This document shows, piece after piece, positions 56,598-64,000 of a stretch of 64,000 nucleotides of DNA. The notes under the pieces were generated by a model that was given only the letters and a program-made list of their open reading frames with translations, did not search any database and had not been told where the DNA came from. The translations under genes and the position numbers were made by a program. The first letter of the stretch is position 1. Every line of letters starts with the position of its first letter. The DNA is from Syntrophorhabdaceae bacterium (GTDB lineage Bacteria > Desulfobacterota > Syntrophorhabdia > Syntrophorhabdales > Syntrophorhabdaceae): contig OY762209.1 of assembly GCA_963665295.1 (NCBI GenBank), positions 1,600,001 to 1,664,000 of the forward strand. The letters are read 5' to 3'.

Positions 56598-59213
56598 TCA
56601 GGTGTGCCTCAGGGAAAGGGGGACATGTTTCCGCAGCAGGTCGGCAAATTGTCCGGGCATAATGGGCTTGCTGAAATAATAACCCTGCATTTCATTACAG
56701 GAGATATTGGTCAGGAAACTCATTTGTTCTGCCGTTTCCACGCCTTCGGCGACGACATTGAGACCTAACGTTTTACCCATGCTGATAATCGCCTCGGTGA
56801 TAGCCTTGTCTCCAGCGTCTTGCGGGATGTTACGGATGAAGGACCGGTCGACTTTGAGCGTATCCACGGGAAAATGTTTGATCTGGGCAAGAGAAGAGTA
56901 ACCGGTGCCGAAATCATCAATGGCCAGCCGCACGCCCAGGCTTTTGATTTCCGCCAATACAGAGATCATACGGGCAGGATTGTACATCACCATACTTTCG
57001 GTGATTTCAAGTTCAAGCAGGTTTGGCGCCATGCCGGAATCATTCAGCGCCGTTTTGATATCATCTATCAGACCGTCATCCATAAGCTGTCGCAACGACA
57101 AATTTACCGCCATGCATATGGCGGGAAGGCCCTGCTGCTGCCAGCCAATGTTCTGGGCGCATGCGGTCTTCAGGACCCACCTGCCGATGGGCACTATTAA
57201 TCCTGTTTCTTCGGCCACCGGAATGAATTGTGTGGGCGTTACCGAACCAAGGTACGGGTTCTGCCAGCGAAGGAGCGCCTCCACGCCGGTGATCGCGTTG
57301 GTCTTGAAGTCAACTTGCGCCTGATAATGCAGAGAGAGTTCGTTACGTTCAAGGGCAAAGCGCAGGTGAGTTTCAATCGATAGACGTTCCAACGATTTTG
57401 ATTGAATATCCTCGGAGTAGAATTGGTAATTGTTCTTGCCTTCCTCCTTGGCAAGATACATGGCCATATCGGCATTTTTCATCAGAGATTGCTCGTCTTC
57501 GGCATCCTTGGGGTACATGCAGATGCCGATGCTCGCCGTTATGCGGCATTCTTGTCCCATAAGAGTTATGGGTTTGATGATACTGGTAAGAATCTTGTGA
57601 GCCACTGTGGCGACCTGATTTGAATCACTTACCTCCTCGATCAATATAACGAACTCATCTCCTCCCAGACGGCCGACAACATCAACTGCCCGCAACGGTT
57701 GTTTCAACCGCGTGGCGACTTCTTGCAGAAGCTGGTCTCCTGCCTTGTGACCCAGGGTATCGTTGATAATTTTGAAGCGATCCAAGTCAAGGAATAACAC
57801 GGCAAACTGCCGCTTATAACGCCGTGCCGCCTGAATGGCGTGATTCAGCAGTTGGTTGAACATGGAGCGGTTGGGCAGTCCTGTCAGGACGTCGTGTGTG
57901 GCGAGGTACTGAATCTCTTCTCCGGCGCGCTTGCGTTCGGTGATGTCGCGGACAATCGCCTGAATAATCGGTTTGCCGTCCAGTTCCATGGCAGTGAGCA
58001 CCACATCGGCAGGGAAGGCCTCGCCGGTGTCGTTTCTCTTGTGCATCCACTCGAAACGAGTGCTGCCCTTTTCCATCGCCGTTGCGATCATCTCGTTGGC
58101 CAGCACCATGGAATCCGTGCCGCACGGCTGTTGCGGCGGTGACAAACCGGCGGGGTGTTTCGCGCAGAACTCCTCCAGGGTCGCGCAGCCGAAGAGCACC
58201 AGGGTCGCCTGGTTGCAGTCGAAAAAGCCCTTTTCGTCCAGCAGCATTACCGCGTCGCTGGACGAATCGTAGAGTGTACGGAACTTCGTTTCCGACCGGT
58301 GCAGCGCCTCCTCCGTCCGCTTGCGCTCGGTAATGTCCAAGAGCGTTTCAATGACGGCCGATATCTTGTCATGTTTATCGCGTATAGGCGCGGCATCAAA
58401 CACGATATACCTGGTTTTTCCGCCCAGATCGGGATACCAGCCTTCCGCGTGTATTCCGTCAGGTATGAGCACGGACCTCGTGTAGACGGGGTAAAGGTCG
58501 GCCGTCTCATCAAACTCATTGTCAATGATTATGTCCGCGACACAAGGACGGGGATGACTATAGAAGGCTTTCCAGTGATCACTGGTGCCAAGTAAGTCCT
58601 CTGATCTTACTCCGGTGAGGTATTCGCATGCCTTATTCCAGTAAATAACTTTATGTTCCGGATTAACGACAAAAGTAGCCACCGCGGAACTTTGAACAAT
58701 GGATTCCATGAATCTGTCTTTTTCCCTTAATGCCTCCTCTGTCCGCTTGCCTTCGGTGATGTCCTCGATGGCCAGGAGGATGATCCGCTTTGTTTCCGAC
58801 GCTCCTTGAACCCGGCGGGCGTTCAAAAGCATCATGCGCCTGCCGATGGTCGGAAAATCGTGTTCCACTTCATAGTTATTGATCCTGCCATCATTTGGAA
58901 GAATATCTTCAAGCAGCGTCCGGAGACGCGGAGTATCCCATTGCCGGTTTCCGAGGTCATAGATAAGGCTGCCTATAGTCTCGTCCGGCGTGACCTCGAA
59001 TGAATCATAGAAGCTACGGGTGGCCTTGACAACCTTCAGATCTGAATCCAGCACCAAAAGGGGCTCGCGGATCGTCTCAAGAATGCTCTCAGTGTAGTTG
59101 AAAGCTTCCTGAATTTCCCGTTCTTTCCGCGTGTGGCGGGCCTCCGATCCTTCAAGCCCGGCAACGCCTTGTCCATCCGCGCGATATTCTCCCGGTTTGC
59201 CCCGGTCTCTCAC
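56598..59213 (-). CDS. PAS-GGDEF-EAL c-di-GMP signalling protein
   Basis: Three PAS units, HDVLTGLPNR, GGDEF, EALLRW, DDFGTGYSSL; probable GTG start 59213 after GAGG. Confidence 0.92.
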   Translation of the reverse strand: MRDRGKPGEYRADGQGVAGLEGSEARHTRKEREIQEAFNYTESILETIREPLLVLDSDLKVVKATRSFYDSFEVTPDETIGSLIYDLGNRQWDTPRLRTLLEDILPNDGRINNYEVEHDFPTIGRRMMLLNARRVQGASETKRIILLAIEDITEGKRTEEALREKDRFMESIVQSSAVATFVVNPEHKVIYWNKACEYLTGVRSEDLLGTSDHWKAFYSHPRPCVADIIIDNEFDETADLYPVYTRSVLIPDGIHAEGWYPDLGGKTRYIVFDAAPIRDKHDKISAVIETLLDITERKRTEEALHRSETKFRTLYDSSSDAVMLLDEKGFFDCNQATLVLFGCATLEEFCAKHPAGLSPPQQPCGTDSMVLANEMIATAMEKGSTRFEWMHKRNDTGEAFPADVVLTAMELDGKPIIQAIVRDITERKRAGEEIQYLATHDVLTGLPNRSMFNQLLNHAIQAARRYKRQFAVLFLDLDRFKIINDTLGHKAGDQLLQEVATRLKQPLRAVDVVGRLGGDEFVILIEEVSDSNQVATVAHKILTSIIKPITLMGQECRITASIGICMYPKDAEDEQSLMKNADMAMYLAKEEGKNNYQFYSEDIQSKSLERLSIETHLRFALERNELSLHYQAQVDFKTNAITGVEALLRWQNPYLGSVTPTQFIPVAEETGLIVPIGRWVLKTACAQNIGWQQQGLPAICMAVNLSLRQLMDDGLIDDIKTALNDSGMAPNLLELEITESMVMYNPARMISVLAEIKSLGVRLAIDDFGTGYSSLAQIKHFPVDTLKVDRSFIRNIPQDAGDKAITEAIISMGKTLGLNVVAEGVETAEQMSFLTNISCNEMQGYYFSKPIMPGQFADLLRKHVPLSLRHT

Positions 59214-59529
59214 GTTATGCCTCGCATCATCAGTTTTCCAATAATTTAAGTATAACAACAAAACAGGGAACTGCAAGCGACCTTTACCACCGCCCCTCAA
59301 TGTCCGTGAACCCATCGGTTGAAATGGTAATCTGAGCCATGTTAAGCCGAAAGGAGGAAAGGGGCGATGCCCCTTTCCTCCAAATCCTGAATATCTGCAC
59401 GGCCTGCTCCGGATTCTTCGCAAGTCCGGAAAGCCCTGTCGTTGCTATGCGTATCTCCTCGACAGGGAGCGGAGAATTCTCAGTTACGCCTGCCCCCTGC
59501 GATAAAGCCATCCGCCCACACCTGCAAGG

Positions 59530-60798
59530 CTATTTCACCTCACCGCAAAGCCTCTCGCCTGCGGCCACAAGGGTCTCCATCTTCTTCGCGAAGGCGAAGC
59601 GCACCGTTTTTTTACCCATTCCCGGCGTGCCATAGAAGACCGATCCCGGCACCACAGCGACGCCGAGGTGAGCGGGCAACCAGCGGGCAAAAGAGTGGTC
59701 GTCTCCATCGAAATCCCACTGGCTGAAGTCGGCCATCACATAGTACGAGCCTTCTGGAGGTTGGGCGCCAAGGCGGGTTTTGCTCAGGACGGACATCATG
59801 GTTTCTCTTCTTGCCGCATAGTCGGCCCGCAGTTTTCCATAGTAGGCGTCCGGCAGGGTGAGCGCCGCGGTGCACGCAGCCTGGAGAGGGGCCGGGGCAC
59901 AGATGGTCATGAAATCGTGGACCGTGCGGATCCCGAGGGTGAGCGGATTCAAGGCACAGGCATACCCGAGGCGCCATCCCGTCAAGGCGAAGGTTTTGCC
60001 GAACCCGCTGATCGTTACGGTCCGGTCCGCCATACCCGGGACCGCGGCGAGGGGCAGATGCCGATGACCATCATACAGTATATGTTCGTATATCTCGTCG
60101 GTGACGGCGATGACATTGAACTCCATGCACAATTTGGCGATACCTTCCAGTTCGTCTCTTGTAAAGACGTGCCCTGTGGGGTTGTGAGGCGTATTGATAA
60201 GGATGATCCGGGTGCGTTCGTTGAAAGCGGCGCGGAGTTTGTCAAGGTCAAGCGTATACCCAGGCGGGTCGAGCGGCACGAACCGGGGAACTCCGCTGGC
60301 AAAGATAACCGCGGGAAAGTATCCCTCGTGGAAGGGCTCTATGATAATCACCTCATCGCCGGGATTCACGTTGCTCATCATGGTAGCGAGGATCGCCTCC
60401 GTCACCCCGCAGGTAACGGTGATATGTTCGTCGGGGTCAAAAGCGAGATTGTACCATCGTTTCATTTTGGCGGAGATTGCCTGTCGCAGCGCGGGCGCGC
60501 CCCACGTGACCGTGTACTGGTTCCCGCCCGCATCGAGGGCCTGATGGGCCGCCTCTATTACCTCCCGGGGAGGATCAAAGTCAGGAAAACCCTGGGAAAG
60601 GTTGATGGCGTTGTGGGTGATGGCAAGGCGTGTCATCTCCCGTATAAAGGATTCCCGCAATTGTGAGAGTCGCCGGGCGCCTCCGCCAGTCACGGGATTG
60701 TATCTTTTATCCACTGCCGAGCTGTTTGCTTTGTGGACAATCTCCATTCTCGTTCCCTCGTTCCTTTGTACCGCTTTCTCCGTCACTTCGTTTTTCAT
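59530..60798 (-). CDS. Class I/II PLP-dependent aminotransferase (possibly aromatic/tyrosine)
   Basis: INLSQGFPDF, NTPHNPTG, TDEIY, GKTFALTGWRLG; GGGAGG RBS. Confidence 0.92.
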   Translation of the reverse strand: MKNEVTEKAVQRNEGTRMEIVHKANSSAVDKRYNPVTGGGARRLSQLRESFIREMTRLAITHNAINLSQGFPDFDPPREVIEAAHQALDAGGNQYTVTWGAPALRQAISAKMKRWYNLAFDPDEHITVTCGVTEAILATMMSNVNPGDEVIIIEPFHEGYFPAVIFASGVPRFVPLDPPGYTLDLDKLRAAFNERTRIILINTPHNPTGHVFTRDELEGIAKLCMEFNVIAVTDEIYEHILYDGHRHLPLAAVPGMADRTVTISGFGKTFALTGWRLGYACALNPLTLGIRTVHDFMTICAPAPLQAACTAALTLPDAYYGKLRADYAARRETMMSVLSKTRLGAQPPEGSYYVMADFSQWDFDGDDHSFARWLPAHLGVAVVPGSVFYGTPGMGKKTVRFAFAKKMETLVAAGERLCGEVK

Positions 60799-60861
60799 AA
60801 AACCTCCCTATTTGTTGTTTTCAGGGTTAAACGACCGCTTTGTCTCCCGTCGTTATTACCC

Positions 60862-60896
60862 AAAAAAAGAGGGCCATGGTAAGAGACCATAGCCCT
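60862..60896 (-). terminator. Attenuator terminator 2
   Basis: AGGGCTATGGT-ctctt-ACCATGGCCCT followed by CTTTTTTT. Confidence 0.8.
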
Positions 60897-60897
60897 T

Positions 60898-60934
60898 AAA
60901 AACCAAAAGGCCATGGGTTGTGCGCCCATGGCCT
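60898..60934 (-). terminator. Attenuator terminator 1
   Basis: AGGCCATGGG-cgcacaa-CCCATGGCCT followed by TTTGGTTTTT. Confidence 0.8.
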
Positions 60935-60963
60935 CCGTCTTTCAGTCGATCAGAGAAAGACCA

Positions 60964-61032
60964 TCATGAGCGCACCTTGGTGTAATAATAATAGTAATAA
61001 TAGCTGACCGGCGCGCTGGTGATGATTTTCAT
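60964..61032 (-). CDS. Tyr-rich leader peptide MKIITSAPVSYYYYYYYTKVRS
   Basis: ATG 61032, seven tandem TAT/TAC codons, TGA 60964; located between promoter and terminators. Confidence 0.82.
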   Translation of the reverse strand: MKIITSAPVSYYYYYYYTKVRS

Positions 61033-61038
61033 ATGGTC

Positions 61039-61067
61039 ACGATATCATATGGAATATGACAAGTCAA
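61039..61067 (-). promoter_or_regulatory. Sigma70 promoter predicting a leaderless leader-peptide mRNA
   Basis: TTGACT-17-TATCGT with TG extension; 6 nt between the -10 and the ATG; no SD. Confidence 0.65.
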
Positions 61068-61406
61068 CATAAATGTCGTTCAGAGAACGCAGGCCATGGC
61101 CTGTATACAGAAGCCACACCTTTAACCTCGATGGTTGACGGCCTGAACCTGCCGCGTTATCGACTCAACGCCCCACCTTCTCACGGGGGCACCATGGGCG
61201 CCCCTTATTCCCGATCCCGGGAAGCACGCGCCATTTCCGAAATAAAGGCGGGACAGCGCCCGCATATGGAGGCGGATGCCGGCCCGCGTCCGGCGCGATG
61301 CGGACGGGTATAGACAAGTATGCCCTTGCGGCGGAAGAAGGATCTGCCCTTTATCCCGACTATTGAAACTCCGGAAAATATGATACAATCGAAAAAGGAG
61401 AACACC

Positions 61407-62369
61407 ATGAAAACTCTGAGAACCGATTCGTGGCATGTCTTTCCCGCTTTTCCGATCACTGCCCTCGCGGTGATCCTCGCGATAATCCTCCTCTCTCCCC
61501 TGACATCGGTCGCCGACAGCCCGTCGCCCGCCGGGACGCCTGTTCTCTGGCCTTCCCGCATGGATGGGTGGAAGATTGCGGAAGGACCCGTAGTTTATGA
61601 CCGGAAGTCGGCTTATACCTATATGGACGGGTCGGCGGAGTTGTTCATCGCCTTCAACATGGAGACGGTGACTGTGGTGAGGTACGAGTCGGCGGGGCGG
61701 CCCGCGATTGTTCTGGAGGTCTACCGGATGGGCTCCACGGACGACGCCTATGGCCTTTTTACCTTCGAGAGCGACGATCCCGCAGCGGGGATAGGCCAGG
61801 GGTCGGAATTCGGGGGCGGTCTCCTCCGGTTTTATAAAGGATATTATTTCGTGAGCGTGTACGGGGATGGCACGGGCGCGGACGTGGAGGCCGCGACTTT
61901 GAGTATTGGACGCTACGTGGCGGACGCCATCACGGAGACGGGTAAGAAGCCTGCGATCCTGGACCTTCTCCCGGACGGAGAAAGCCCTTACGTGAGGGCC
62001 GCGACGTGGCTGCTTCGGAGTCACATCCTCCTCAACCAGCGCTTTTCCGTCTCCAGGAAAAATATACTGAACCTCGCCGCTGATACGGAGGCGGTCCTTG
62101 CCCGGTATGAGAGCGGCAAGGAGAAGGTCCACCTCCTTCTCGTAAAGTATCCCGACAGGGCACGGGCGGATTCGGCCTTCTCGGGTTTCAAGGCGGAATA
62201 TGCACCTGACGGGGGAAGCTTCCCGAGGAAGACGGGGAACAATAAGTGGGTCGCCGCAGGGGCCTACGGCCGTTACGTTCTCGCAATATTCGATGCCCCC
62301 GATGAGACGTTTGCCACGAAAATGCTCAGGAATGCGGCCGCGCCGCTCGACAAGGAGGCACGACAATGA
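61407..62369 (+). CDS. Exported protein, DUF6599-like
   Basis: N-terminal hydrophobic segment; YMDGSAELF and EVYRMGSTDDAYGLF motifs. Confidence 0.65.
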   Translation: MKTLRTDSWHVFPAFPITALAVILAIILLSPLTSVADSPSPAGTPVLWPSRMDGWKIAEGPVVYDRKSAYTYMDGSAELFIAFNMETVTVVRYESAGRPAIVLEVYRMGSTDDAYGLFTFESDDPAAGIGQGSEFGGGLLRFYKGYYFVSVYGDGTGADVEAATLSIGRYVADAITETGKKPAILDLLPDGESPYVRAATWLLRSHILLNQRFSVSRKNILNLAADTEAVLARYESGKEKVHLLLVKYPDRARADSAFSGFKAEYAPDGGSFPRKTGNNKWVAAGAYGRYVLAIFDAPDETFATKMLRNAAAPLDKEARQ

Positions 62370-63256
62370 AAGAAAAGAAAACGATCACCCGCCGCGATTT
62401 TCTTAAGGGGACCGCGGGCATCGCGTTGGGGGCCGCCCTTGGCCCCATGCTTCCCGGCTTCACCATGGCCCAGGCATCTCCCAGGGTAGTTCTCGTAAGG
62501 GATGCGGACGTGGTGGGCCCCGGCGGGGAGGTAAACGGGAAGATACTCGCGTCCATGCTCGACGAAGCGGTCCGCCTCGTGACCGGGGCGAAAGAGCCCC
62601 TTGACGGGTGGAAGGGCCTCTTCGGGAAATCCGACGTCGTAGGGGTTAAGACCAACGCCTGGCGCTACCTGTCCACCCCGAAAGAGATGGAAGAGGCCAT
62701 CCGGCGGCGCGTCATGGAGACGGGAGTGGAGGAGAAGAATATTGCGGTAGACGACAGGGGCATTCGCACCAACCCTGTGTTCATGAGGTCCACCGCCCTC
62801 GTCAACGTCCGTCCCGTGAGGACCCACCATTGGGCAGGGGTGGGGACGTGTCTCAAGAACTACATCATGTTCGTGCCTACCCCTTCGGAGTACCATCCCG
62901 ACGGATGCGCCGAGCTGGGCAGGGTATGGACCCTACCGGAAGTGAAAGGAAAGACCCGCCTCAACATACTCGTGGCCCTTACCCCTCAGTTTTACGGGAG
63001 GGGGGCGAACTTTTTCGACAGGCGATATGTCTGGTCTTACAAGGGCATAATCGTGGGCATCGACCCCGTGGCAGTCGACACGGTGGGCGCGGAGCTTCTG
63101 AAGCGAAAGCGGATTGCCCAATTCGGAGAGGACAGGGCCCTCGATGTGACACCCCACCATATAACGGTGGCGGACCGGAAGTACAGGCTCGGCGTGTCGG
63201 ATCTCAAGAAGATCGACCTTGTAAAAGTCGGCTGGAAGGAAGATATTCTCCTTTAG
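62366..63256 (+). CDS. Tat-exported DUF362-domain protein
   Basis: TRRDFLK twin-arginine signal, VGVKTN, RTHHWAGVGTCLKN, DPVAVD. Confidence 0.78.
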   Translation: MKEKKTITRRDFLKGTAGIALGAALGPMLPGFTMAQASPRVVLVRDADVVGPGGEVNGKILASMLDEAVRLVTGAKEPLDGWKGLFGKSDVVGVKTNAWRYLSTPKEMEEAIRRRVMETGVEEKNIAVDDRGIRTNPVFMRSTALVNVRPVRTHHWAGVGTCLKNYIMFVPTPSEYHPDGCAELGRVWTLPEVKGKTRLNILVALTPQFYGRGANFFDRRYVWSYKGIIVGIDPVAVDTVGAELLKRKRIAQFGEDRALDVTPHHITVADRKYRLGVSDLKKIDLVKVGWKEDILL

Positions 63257-63317: not shown

Positions 63318-64000
63318 ATGATTATAAACGATGCAATCGCACGGGCCATGTCCATAAGACTCGACGAGGTGGTGGGTGATCTTCCTCCTCCACCTTCTTT
63401 CAGGGAAGGGATCAGGAGGGCGCCCAAGCGGAACTTCACCCTTTCAAGGGAAGAGACGGTCCTCGCACTGAAGAACGCCCTCCGGTACGTGCCGGAAAAG
63501 TGGCACGGGGTCCTCGCGCCCGAATTCCTCGACGAGCTTCTTACAAGGGGCCGCGTGTACGCGTACCGGTTCAGGCCCGAGGGGGCCATCACGGGAAGGC
63601 CCGTCGAGACCTATTCCGGTAAGTGCATGGAAGGCAGGGCCTTCCAGGTAATGATCGACAACAATCTCGATTTCGACGTGGCCCTCTATCCCTACGAGCT
63701 CGTAACCTACGGGGAGACGGGGCAGGTCTGCCAGAACTGGCTTCAGTACCGCCTTATCAAGGCCTATCTCGAAGTCTTGACTACGGAGCAGACCCTCGTC
63801 GTCGAATCGGGCCATCCCCTTGGACTCTTCAGGTCGAACGAAAACGCCCCCAGGGTGATAATCACGAACGCCCTCATGGTGGGGTGTTTTGACGACCAGG
63901 AGAACTGGAGCCGGGCCGCCCAACTGGGGGTGGCCAATTACGGCCAGATGACCGCGGGCGGGTGGATGTACATCGGGCCCCAGGGCATCGTCCACGGTAC
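63318..64000 (+). CDS. hutU: Urocanate hydratase (5' part, truncated by window end)
   Basis: Own translation: NNLDFDVALYPYELVTYG, SGHPLGLF, YGQMTAGGWMYIGPQGIVHG; absent from ORF track. Confidence 0.93.
   Translation, partial: MIINDAIARAMSIRLDEVVGDLPPPPSFREGIRRAPKRNFTLSREETVLALKNALRYVPEKWHGVLAPEFLDELLTRGRVYAYRFRPEGAITGRPVETYSGKCMEGRAFQVMIDNNLDFDVALYPYELVTYGETGQVCQNWLQYRLIKAYLEVLTTEQTLVVESGHPLGLFRSNENAPRVIITNALMVGCFDDQENWSRAAQLGVANYGQMTAGGWMYIGPQGIVHG

Follow-up and report, generated by a model that had tools for sequence, protein, structure and literature searches.

A Tyrosine-Run Leader and a Putative Leaderless Attenuator Upstream of an Aminotransferase Gene in Syntrophorhabdia

What purpose does a run of seven consecutive tyrosine (Tyr) codons serve when it stands between a promoter-like site and two terminator-like hairpins, directly upstream of an aminotransferase gene? 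This question is raised by a locus on the minus strand of a 64,000-nt stretch of contig OY762209.1, from a Syntrophorhabdaceae bacterium, which is referred to below as the window. The sequence of the locus and of its relatives makes it highly probable that the element is a ribosome-mediated leader-peptide transcription attenuator sensing charged tRNA-Tyr. It is most likely the Tyr-only member of a modular family of leaderless aromatic attenuators found in Syntrophorhabdia. From the same material we infer the start of transcription, the translation of the leader, termination, the kinetics of folding, the response to Tyr and the substrate of the enzyme.

The leader reading frame and its conservation

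A promoter-pattern scan of the region detected a -35-like hexamer, TTGACT (61062..61067, minus strand), followed after 17 nt by a -10-like hexamer, TATCGT (61039..61044, minus strand), which is preceded by TG. Six bases, GACCAT, separate the -10 box from an ATG at 61032 on the minus strand, and given this distance the mRNA is predicted to be leaderless. The ATG opens a leader open reading frame (ORF), MKIITSAPVSYYYYYYYTKVRS, which spans 60964..61032 on the minus strand, comprises 22 codons followed by TGA (60966-60964) and lacks a Shine-Dalgarno sequence. Its proposed sensing codons are seven consecutive Tyr codons at 60982..61002 (minus strand), namely TAT TAT TAC TAT TAT TAT TAC, hence five TAT and two TAC. 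Runs of this kind are scarce in the 5.5-Mb genome: both strands together contain eight runs of at least four TAY codons, of which only that of the leader exceeds five. Two terminator-like hairpins and the aminotransferase gene complete the arrangement, each part of which was found exactly where the initial annotation of this DNA had placed it.

The same annotation had considered the alternative frames over the Tyr run to be closed and devoid of starts, and this was borne out. In the window, the frames that would read the run as Ile/Thr and as Leu are interrupted by stops 29 and 37 nt upstream, respectively, and neither contains an ATG, GTG or TTG after its stop.

The locus was compared with 96 species-level genomes of the class (Syntrophorhabdia, Syntrophorhabdus-like Desulfobacterota). 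Orthologs of the aminotransferase, retained at E <= 1e-140 and displaying 71-89% identity, occur in 22 of them. Inspection of the upstream regions of orthologs for Tyr runs, which had been proposed as a check, revealed 5-9 consecutive Tyr codons at every one of the 22 loci; one further Tyr-type locus (L070, in genome G068), the 23rd, was picked up through its terminator motif. An ATG in the Tyr frame precedes the run by 21-39 nt in 21 of the 22 loci, and among these 21 the length of the pre-run segment differs by whole codons. A start codon of any kind is present in the Ile/Thr frame of a single locus and in the Leu frame of two. The orthologs therefore conserve the Tyr frame rather than another one, in agreement with the earlier proposal that it is the frame actually read, and the related leaders described below keep the aromatic class of amino acids.

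The promoter geometry is likewise shared. TTGACA occupies the -35 position, 17 nt from the -10 box, in the 20 other loci where this position is visible; in L023 the end of the contig removes it. The distance between the -10 box and the ATG is 6 nt in three loci, 7 nt in two and 9 nt in 17 (n = 22), which leaves no room for a Shine-Dalgarno sequence and supports the leaderless poly-Tyr leader first proposed for the window locus. Beyond the Tyr run, the peptide sequence is freely variable, save for positions at which base pairing of the RNA has to be preserved. Within the runs, TAT accounts for 100 of 145 codons (69%) in the 22 loci; for long ORFs genome-wide, the share of TAT among Tyr codons is 45%, so the sensor slightly favors the wobble-read codon.

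The leader was absent from the paralogs at 47-50% identity (six loci, one of which is in the same genome) and from the orthologs at 57-74% identity in metagenome-assembled genomes of Chloroflexi, Acidobacteriota, Anaerolineae and Planctomycetia (seven loci). The latter seven also lack an N-terminal extension of about 40 residues of the aminotransferase. Judged by these comparisons, the Tyr element is real and conserved.

A direct repeat, CCATATGA...CCATATGA, extends over window positions 61030-61055 (minus strand) and spans both the -10 box and the start codon; similar sequence is found in L018 and L019. This repeat might act as an operator for a protein, in addition to the attenuator.

RNA pairings and the proposed switch

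Read in the order of transcription, the RNA of the window locus is divided into six segments, laid out such that helices 1:2, 3:4 and 5:6 would compete with helices 2:3 and 4:5. Segment 1 corresponds to leader codons 3-9 (61007..61024, minus strand, as are all segments of the element) and pairs with segment 2 in the minimum-energy fold, with the Tyr run in the loop; the fold containing this 1:2 helix reaches -20.8 kcal/mol. Segment 2, GGTGCGCTCATG (60965..60976), is the 5' strand of the antiterminator. It begins 6 nt past the last Tyr codon and overlaps the last codons of the leader and its TGA stop. A small hairpin, H (GTCTTTC...GAAAGAC, 60937..60961), lies between segments 2 and 3 and can form in both states. 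Terminator 1 (60898..60936) is made of segments 3 and 4, GGCCATGGG-CGCACAA-CCCATGGCC followed by TTTTGGTTTTT, and its hairpin (60936-60906) has 12 pairs; the part of segment 3 that acts as 3' strand of the antiterminator (60920..60930) is located inside its 5' arm and loop. Terminator 2 (60862..60896) is made of segments 5 and 6, AGGGCTATGG-TCTCTTA-CCATGGCCCT followed by CTTTTTTT, with a hairpin of 11 pairs (60896-60870). Pattern matching places a T-run after each of these two terminator-like hairpins.

Two complementarities link these parts in another way. First, GTGCGCTCATG (60975-60965), at the 3' end of the leader, is complementary to CATGGGCGCAC (60930-60920) through 10 Watson-Crick pairs and one G.U pair. 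Second, segment 4, CCATGGCC, the 3' arm of terminator 1, is complementary to segment 5, GGCCATGG, the 5' arm of terminator 2.

Such features exceed what shuffled sequences yield. The 241-nt leader folds at -88.1 kcal/mol versus -61.1 ± 4.9 kcal/mol for shuffles, a value that none of 200 reached and that is 5.5 standard deviations better than their mean. The region contains six terminator-like sites versus 1.3 ± 1.2 in shuffles. The duplex between the segment that follows the Tyr run and the 5' half of terminator 1 has an energy of -25.3 kcal/mol versus -14.0 ± 3.0 kcal/mol, attained by 3 of 2000 mononucleotide shuffles. A possible identity of terminator 1 as a genome-wide repeat was rejected: its 12-mer occurs at eight genome sites, and at the other seven the hairpin is missing and the surrounding sequence resembles coding DNA.

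On this basis, we propose that transcription would begin at the ATG or within 3 nt of it, and that a 70S ribosome would start on the leaderless mRNA. With sufficient Tyr, the ribosome would reach the TGA and cover segment 2; if the leader went untranslated, segment 1 would pair with segment 2 instead. In either situation, whether segment 2 is covered or paired, terminator 1 (3:4) and terminator 2 (5:6) would form and transcription would stop before the aminotransferase gene. When charged tRNA-Tyr becomes scarce, the ribosome would stall in the seven-Tyr run and cover segment 1, leaving segment 2 free to pair with segment 3 as soon as the latter is made. Segment 4, thus freed, could then take segment 5, in which case no terminator would form and the aminotransferase gene would be transcribed.

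Both conformations were evaluated by counting pairs on an alignment of the 22 loci. The stem of terminator 1 is invariant, its nine pairs being 100% paired in all 22, and its loop bases GYGC are conserved as well. A plain terminator would not need a conserved loop. The complementarity between the 3' end of the leader and the 5' arm and loop of terminator 1, a central element of the initial annotation, is maintained, since the nine core pairs of 2:3 are kept in every sequence that has letters there. One 2:3 pair is compensatory (AU in 17 loci, GC in four and GU in one), and RNAalifold indicates that the same segment-3 base covaries with the 3' side of terminator 1 (UA in 17, CG in three and UG in one), as expected of a base with two alternative partners. 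At that terminator 1 pair, the window locus itself has an unpaired C-A. In the stem of terminator 2, pairing reaches 99%, and in two pairs both partners have changed. Terminator 2 is present in 21 of the 22 loci and followed by a U-tract in all 21; L005, which lacks it, has terminator 1 alone with a long U-tract. Helix 4:5 is 99% paired over the alignment.

All minimum-energy folds except that of L002 (21 of the 22 loci) contain the 1:2 helix. Its sequences are lineage-specific; codons ~3-9 base-pair with segment 2, so that the Tyr run lies in the loop. For hairpin H, the alignment count is only 72% paired because the register of the helix differs between lineages, and it was therefore judged from the folds of individual sequences. 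The energy of 2:3 together with hairpin H ranges from -16 to -26 kcal/mol in the 22 loci, and that of terminator 1 from -15 to -18 kcal/mol. In the 21 loci that have terminator 2, helix 4:5 ranges from -13 to -18 kcal/mol and terminator 2 from -15 to -20 kcal/mol, hence 4:5 is weaker than 5:6. In five loci (L006, L007, L030, L031 and L032), terminator 1 is followed by an A-rich sequence and not by a U-tract; there, control by the leader would reach a real terminator only through 4:5. Both sets of helices are compatible with the sequences compared. The 1:2 helix around the Tyr run, the likely 4:5 helix joining the two terminators and the wider family of elements described next extend beyond what had been annotated.

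Sister leaders and the downstream aminotransferase

A search of the 96 genomes with the terminator 1 motif (25 nt, up to one mismatch) returned matches in 44 of them, whereas the reversed pattern, used as a control, returned 0 matches. Besides the Tyr leaders, the motif follows other short ORFs whose ATG is spaced from the promoter in the same way and whose antiterminator strand, GCACCC, is conserved. In 18 genomes, 3-deoxy-D-arabinoheptulosonate 7-phosphate (DAHP) synthase is preceded by leaders in which Phe, Tyr and Trp codons are mixed, such as MQILATFSGYYFYFWYRGMHPRC and the Trp-rich AYTGWWWYRSVIAHP, although in one of the 18 (L094) the DAHP-synthase match is weak and lies 734 nt downstream. 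Phe/Tyr leaders without Trp, for instance MVDKSIFLGFFYFYFICPHPG and MAMFGTCTFYGFYFYFRGLHPG, precede a PRK06836-type aminotransferase in seven genomes, and a Trp leader, MTSKQAIIRSWIWWRRVSVV, precedes a TrpB-like gene in one.

Two of these sister elements belong to the genome of the window. The first, at ~1962557 (locus L105 9250-9620, minus strand), consists of the leaderless ORF MSTRMGAVSGCEYYYFWYWYGKGVHPWGFKA and two CCATGG-type terminators, and precedes an eight-gene operon, aroF (DAHP synthase)-aroB-aroD-aroE/K-aroA-aroC-pheA-tyrA. The second, at ~2718498 (locus L104 3700-4060, minus strand), consists of the leaderless ORF MERKTAVFGFYYYFRNLHPGIFLL and two terminators, and precedes two tandem PRK06836-type aminotransferases, both of which score above the curated cut-off. 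With sister elements standing before other aromatic genes, the codon mix of the leader thus tracks the regulated enzyme. That it follows the end products of this enzyme strongly supports the view that the ORFs are translated in the aromatic frame and serve as amino-acid sensors, and implies that the gene behind a pure Tyr run serves tyrosine specifically.

Scanning the phylum with the terminator 1 pattern gave matches in 30 of 401 genomes. Those outside the class nearly all have one mismatch, a GC-rich loop, no T-run and no aromatic ORF, and were treated as chance. An exception is L107 (genome G184, from another family of the phylum), where an aromatic leader, MMGRRYFWWFYFSGAHPGP, and CCATGG-type hairpins precede a PRK06836-like aminotransferase. 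Given L107, the cassette is, by its sequence features, not strictly confined to the class; the pattern is strict, such that the few matches outside the class do not show absence elsewhere.

The genome of the window was also scanned for leaders with at least five of seven identical residues followed by a terminator. Of the 11 candidates, just two are convincing: the Tyr leader and a leader upstream of ilvB. The latter, MIVEKVVLLVVVVTIISRYAPMGLG followed by a stop, is an Ile/Val/Leu-rich leader of the branched-chain type with a strong terminator (~5158560, locus L057 261-400, plus strand). Its promoter-like site is ~75 nt upstream, hence it is not leaderless. It precedes a 557-aa ORF that a by-eye reading makes a candidate acetolactate synthase, IlvB. 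As read from this leader, attenuation is used elsewhere in the same organism.

The gene proposed to be regulated by the Tyr element encodes a class I pyridoxal 5'-phosphate-dependent aminotransferase of 422 aa (59530..60798, minus strand), of the YbdL / kynurenine aminotransferase / Rv0858c type. It has its own Shine-Dalgarno sequence, GGGAGG (60803..60808, minus strand), 54 nt after the T-run of terminator 2. The ORF belongs to class I/II aminotransferases (Pfam PF00155), and its nearest NCBIfam models are PRK07777, PRK08912 and the methionine aminotransferase PRK09082. The closest solved structures are Escherichia coli YbdL, Mycobacterium tuberculosis Rv0858c and kynurenine aminotransferases, together with the Pyrococcus aromatic aminotransferase and the Thermus glutamine aminotransferase. 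This family includes members that accept aromatic substrates. Enzymes of the Rv0858c type can reportedly act as prephenate aminotransferases (Graindorge et al. 2014); our search for literature on prephenate aminotransferases turned up plant work only. Induction by a lack of charged tRNA-Tyr would indicate a biosynthetic and not a catabolic role. The enzyme is most likely a biosynthetic enzyme of the Tyr branch, converting 4-hydroxyphenylpyruvate to Tyr or prephenate to arogenate, two candidate substrates of equal standing. The same genome carries a pheA-tyrA pair within its aro operon, and its TyrA has 265 aa.

In loci of the genus g7 (e.g. L028, L021 and L002), a second tiny ORF of 13-15 codons was observed between terminator 2 and the aminotransferase gene. 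It has its own GGGAGG, and its TGA overlaps the ATG of the aminotransferase (ATGA), which suggests translational coupling. This second ORF is absent from the window locus.

Downstream of the aminotransferase, the window encodes a PAS-GGDEF-EAL protein (56598-59423, minus strand). On the divergent side, a DUF6599 protein (61320-62369, plus strand) is followed by a DUF362 protein with a Tat signal (62366-63256, plus strand) and by the N-terminal part of a urocanase-like protein (63318-63998, plus strand). None of these neighbors is conserved beside the attenuator in the orthologous loci inspected. A terminator-like hairpin, GCGGGCGCTGTCCCGC followed by CTTTATTT (61246-61263, minus strand), was also noted ~180 nt upstream of the leader promoter, in the interval that separates the attenuator from the divergent gene at 61320.

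Rival readings, known attenuators and significance

Several observations weigh against a tyrosine-sensing attenuator, or against particular steps of the switch proposed here. In the region of the locus, the promoter-like site alone is at chance level (one found versus 1.1 expected), and on the sequence comparison its weight comes from its conservation in the orthologous loci. The aminotransferase is patchily distributed in the class (22 of the 96 genomes), the other three genomes of the genus have no ortholog of it, and it falls below every curated NCBIfam cut-off. Changes between TAT and TAC are synonymous in the Leu frame too (TTA/CTA), so that the assignment of the frame rests on start codons, stops and the evidence of the family. 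In L032, an additional base upstream of the run shifts the ATG into the Leu frame; this locus comes from a genome that is 78% complete (G075), its aminotransferase match is truncated (residues 26-307), and the shift could be an assembly error or a sign of a decaying locus. Covariation, which the initial annotation had suggested looking for in the stems, was recovered in part: it is seen at the single 2:3 pair and at the two pairs of terminator 2 mentioned above, while no compensatory pair supports 4:5. It is thin because the sequences are closely related. In addition, CCATGG is common to all four terminator arms, and pair counts therefore cannot separate 4:5 from 3:4 and 5:6.

Folding at equilibrium raises a further difficulty. 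When the 5' RNA was masked as it would be by a ribosome on Tyr codon 3, helix 2:3 formed in transcripts ending before segment 4, but once segment 4 was made the minimum-energy structure switched to terminator 1. In the masked full-length fold of the window locus, 2:3 was back and terminator 1 lost, with terminator 2 kept; in that of L028, both terminators were kept. As equilibrium folds do not favor read-through, the switch would have to be kinetic, depending on the order of folding during transcription. Read-through in classical attenuators depends on folding order in the same manner. The model is weakest at the 4:5 step.

These folds bear on a first rival, in which the attenuator is real but responds to the speed of UAU decoding (for example to the queuosine state of tRNA-Tyr) or to general translation stress, with terminator 2 acting as an unregulated leak-limiter. 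Both the share of TAT in the runs and the persistence of terminator 2 in equilibrium folds even when 2:3 forms would fit such a scheme, but the codon mix of the sister leaders, which follows end products, fits amino-acid sensing, and in the five loci that lack a U-tract after terminator 1 control must act on terminator 2. We consider this rival highly improbable.

A second rival leaves the ORF untranslated and sees in the UAY repeats a protein-binding site on the RNA, comparable to that of TRAP, or a portion of a riboswitch controlling the terminators. Repeated triplets can indeed bind proteins. However, the promoter-to-ATG distance is fixed, the frame is kept through changes of length by whole codons, and the stop codon stays beside or within segment 2. 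Moreover, related elements swap UAY for UUY and UGG within the same cassette, so what is conserved is the class of amino acid and not an RNA motif. As for a riboswitch, a search of Rfam 15 (amino-acid leaders, T-box and riboswitches) returned no match at the gathering score for the window leader; its best sub-threshold match, an unrelated small RNA over the terminators, scored 24.3 bits versus the 43 needed, and six loci of the attenuator family gave 0 matches. This explanation deserves very little credence.

Translation of the run in the Leu frame, where it would consist of the rare codons UUA and CUA and sense leucine or a rare tRNA-Leu, would accommodate both the silent TAT/TAC changes and the ATG of L032. 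Against it, the Leu frame has a start codon in two of the 22 loci versus 21 with an ATG in the Tyr frame, and in the window it is closed and startless. The sister leaders mix TTT, TTC and TGG with TAT and TAC, codons that are aromatic only in the ATG frame, and the genes that they regulate belong to the aromatic pathway. A leucine sensor is accordingly very improbable. Finally, conservation in 21 of 22 loci and the two terminators that follow the ORF could be taken to mean that the Tyr-rich peptide is itself the product, small and functional or modified, and that the hairpins merely end its transcript, but this has hardly any plausibility when the peptide varies freely outside the Tyr run save where the RNA pairs, when no peptide-modifying enzyme is adjacent to the leader and the aminotransferase is always next to it on the same strand, 83-171 nt past terminator 1, and when the conserved alternative pairing with the terminator loop would have no role.

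The tyrosine-sensing attenuator that we favor can be set beside known systems. Established leader-peptide attenuators sense Trp, Phe, His, Thr, Leu and Ile/Val. The his attenuator of Salmonella and E. coli contains seven consecutive His codons and opposes helices A:B, C:D and E:F to helices B:C and D:E. The Tyr element resembles it in having about seven identical codons, six proposed pairing segments, two helices that would re-pair to remove the terminator, and a stop codon near the antiterminator strand. It differs in its predicted leaderless mRNA without a Shine-Dalgarno sequence, in that its 3:4 helix mostly has a U-tract of its own, giving two tandem terminators, and in that it would sense Tyr and control a single aminotransferase gene. 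The two elements are related neither in sequence nor through Rfam.

The pheL-pheA and pheM-pheST attenuators of the gamma-proteobacteria, as outlined in PMC11802643 and PMC3082878, are similar to the Tyr element in that an aromatic leader with runs of one type of codon controls an intrinsic terminator. They differ, to the extent described in these sources, by their Phe codons, their Shine-Dalgarno start, their lineage and their RNA, for which no Rfam match was obtained here. In Corynebacterium glutamicum, the leader of the aroR-aroF attenuator (Neshat et al. 2014, relayed by PMC11802643) contains aromatic codons, including Tyr, and likewise precedes a gene of the aromatic pathway; it is closest to the mixed Phe/Tyr/Trp sister elements that precede DAHP synthase. 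According to that account, AroR is insensitive to Tyr and contains only Phe-Tyr-Phe, whereas in the Tyr element 5-9 codons specify Tyr and other aromatic codons are nearly absent. Our search of the published literature brought up no natural attenuator that relies on consecutive Tyr codons alone, and the nearest printed case is aroR of C. glutamicum.

Short, leaderless sensory ORFs in which a single amino acid is repeated are described in mycobacteria, where polycysteine short ORFs forming a "ribulon" act on translation (bioRxiv 10.1101/834739). As presented in that preprint, they share with the Tyr element the leaderless run and the occurrence of several loci per genome on the same signal, and differ from it by the amino acid, the phylum and their translational action. 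In the Tyr element, hairpins with U-tracts located at least 60 nt before the Shine-Dalgarno sequence point to termination of transcription. A comparative study places Tyr genes under T-boxes and, within the account that it gives, assigns them no RNA element in Actinobacteria (PMC1262725). The Tyr element resembles such T-boxes in its proposed response to the charging of tRNA-Tyr and control of a terminator. In T-boxes, the RNA itself binds the tRNA and translation is not required, and the Tyr element has no T-box or other Rfam match.

A broader interpretation can be advanced tentatively, and we regard it as possible without giving it the better part of our confidence: an aromatic "ribulon," in which a single leaderless antiterminator/terminator cassette is re-addressed by the codon mix of its leader (Trp; Phe/Tyr; Phe/Tyr/Trp; or Tyr alone), the Tyr-only enzyme being a likely prephenate aminotransferase. 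If this were true, each aromatic enzyme would be switched on by exactly its end products, the Tyr-only enzyme would mark a transamination step dedicated to tyrosine, an enzyme of the YbdL / kynurenine aminotransferase / Rv0858c family would have been recruited to feed the arogenate route to tyrosine, and no natural attenuator specific to tyrosine would precede the element described here.

Should the Tyr element work as proposed, it would extend attenuation to tyrosine and leaderless sensory mini-genes beyond Actinobacteria. It would also provide a naturally occurring series of attenuators that combine a single RNA cassette with various codon "addresses," and such a series would be useful both for studying how specificity evolves and for building amino-acid-specific sensors. 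Ultimately, an aminotransferase that is otherwise unnamed would gain a probable function in the synthesis of tyrosine, in a syntrophic, aromatic-degrading lineage rich in uncultured members.

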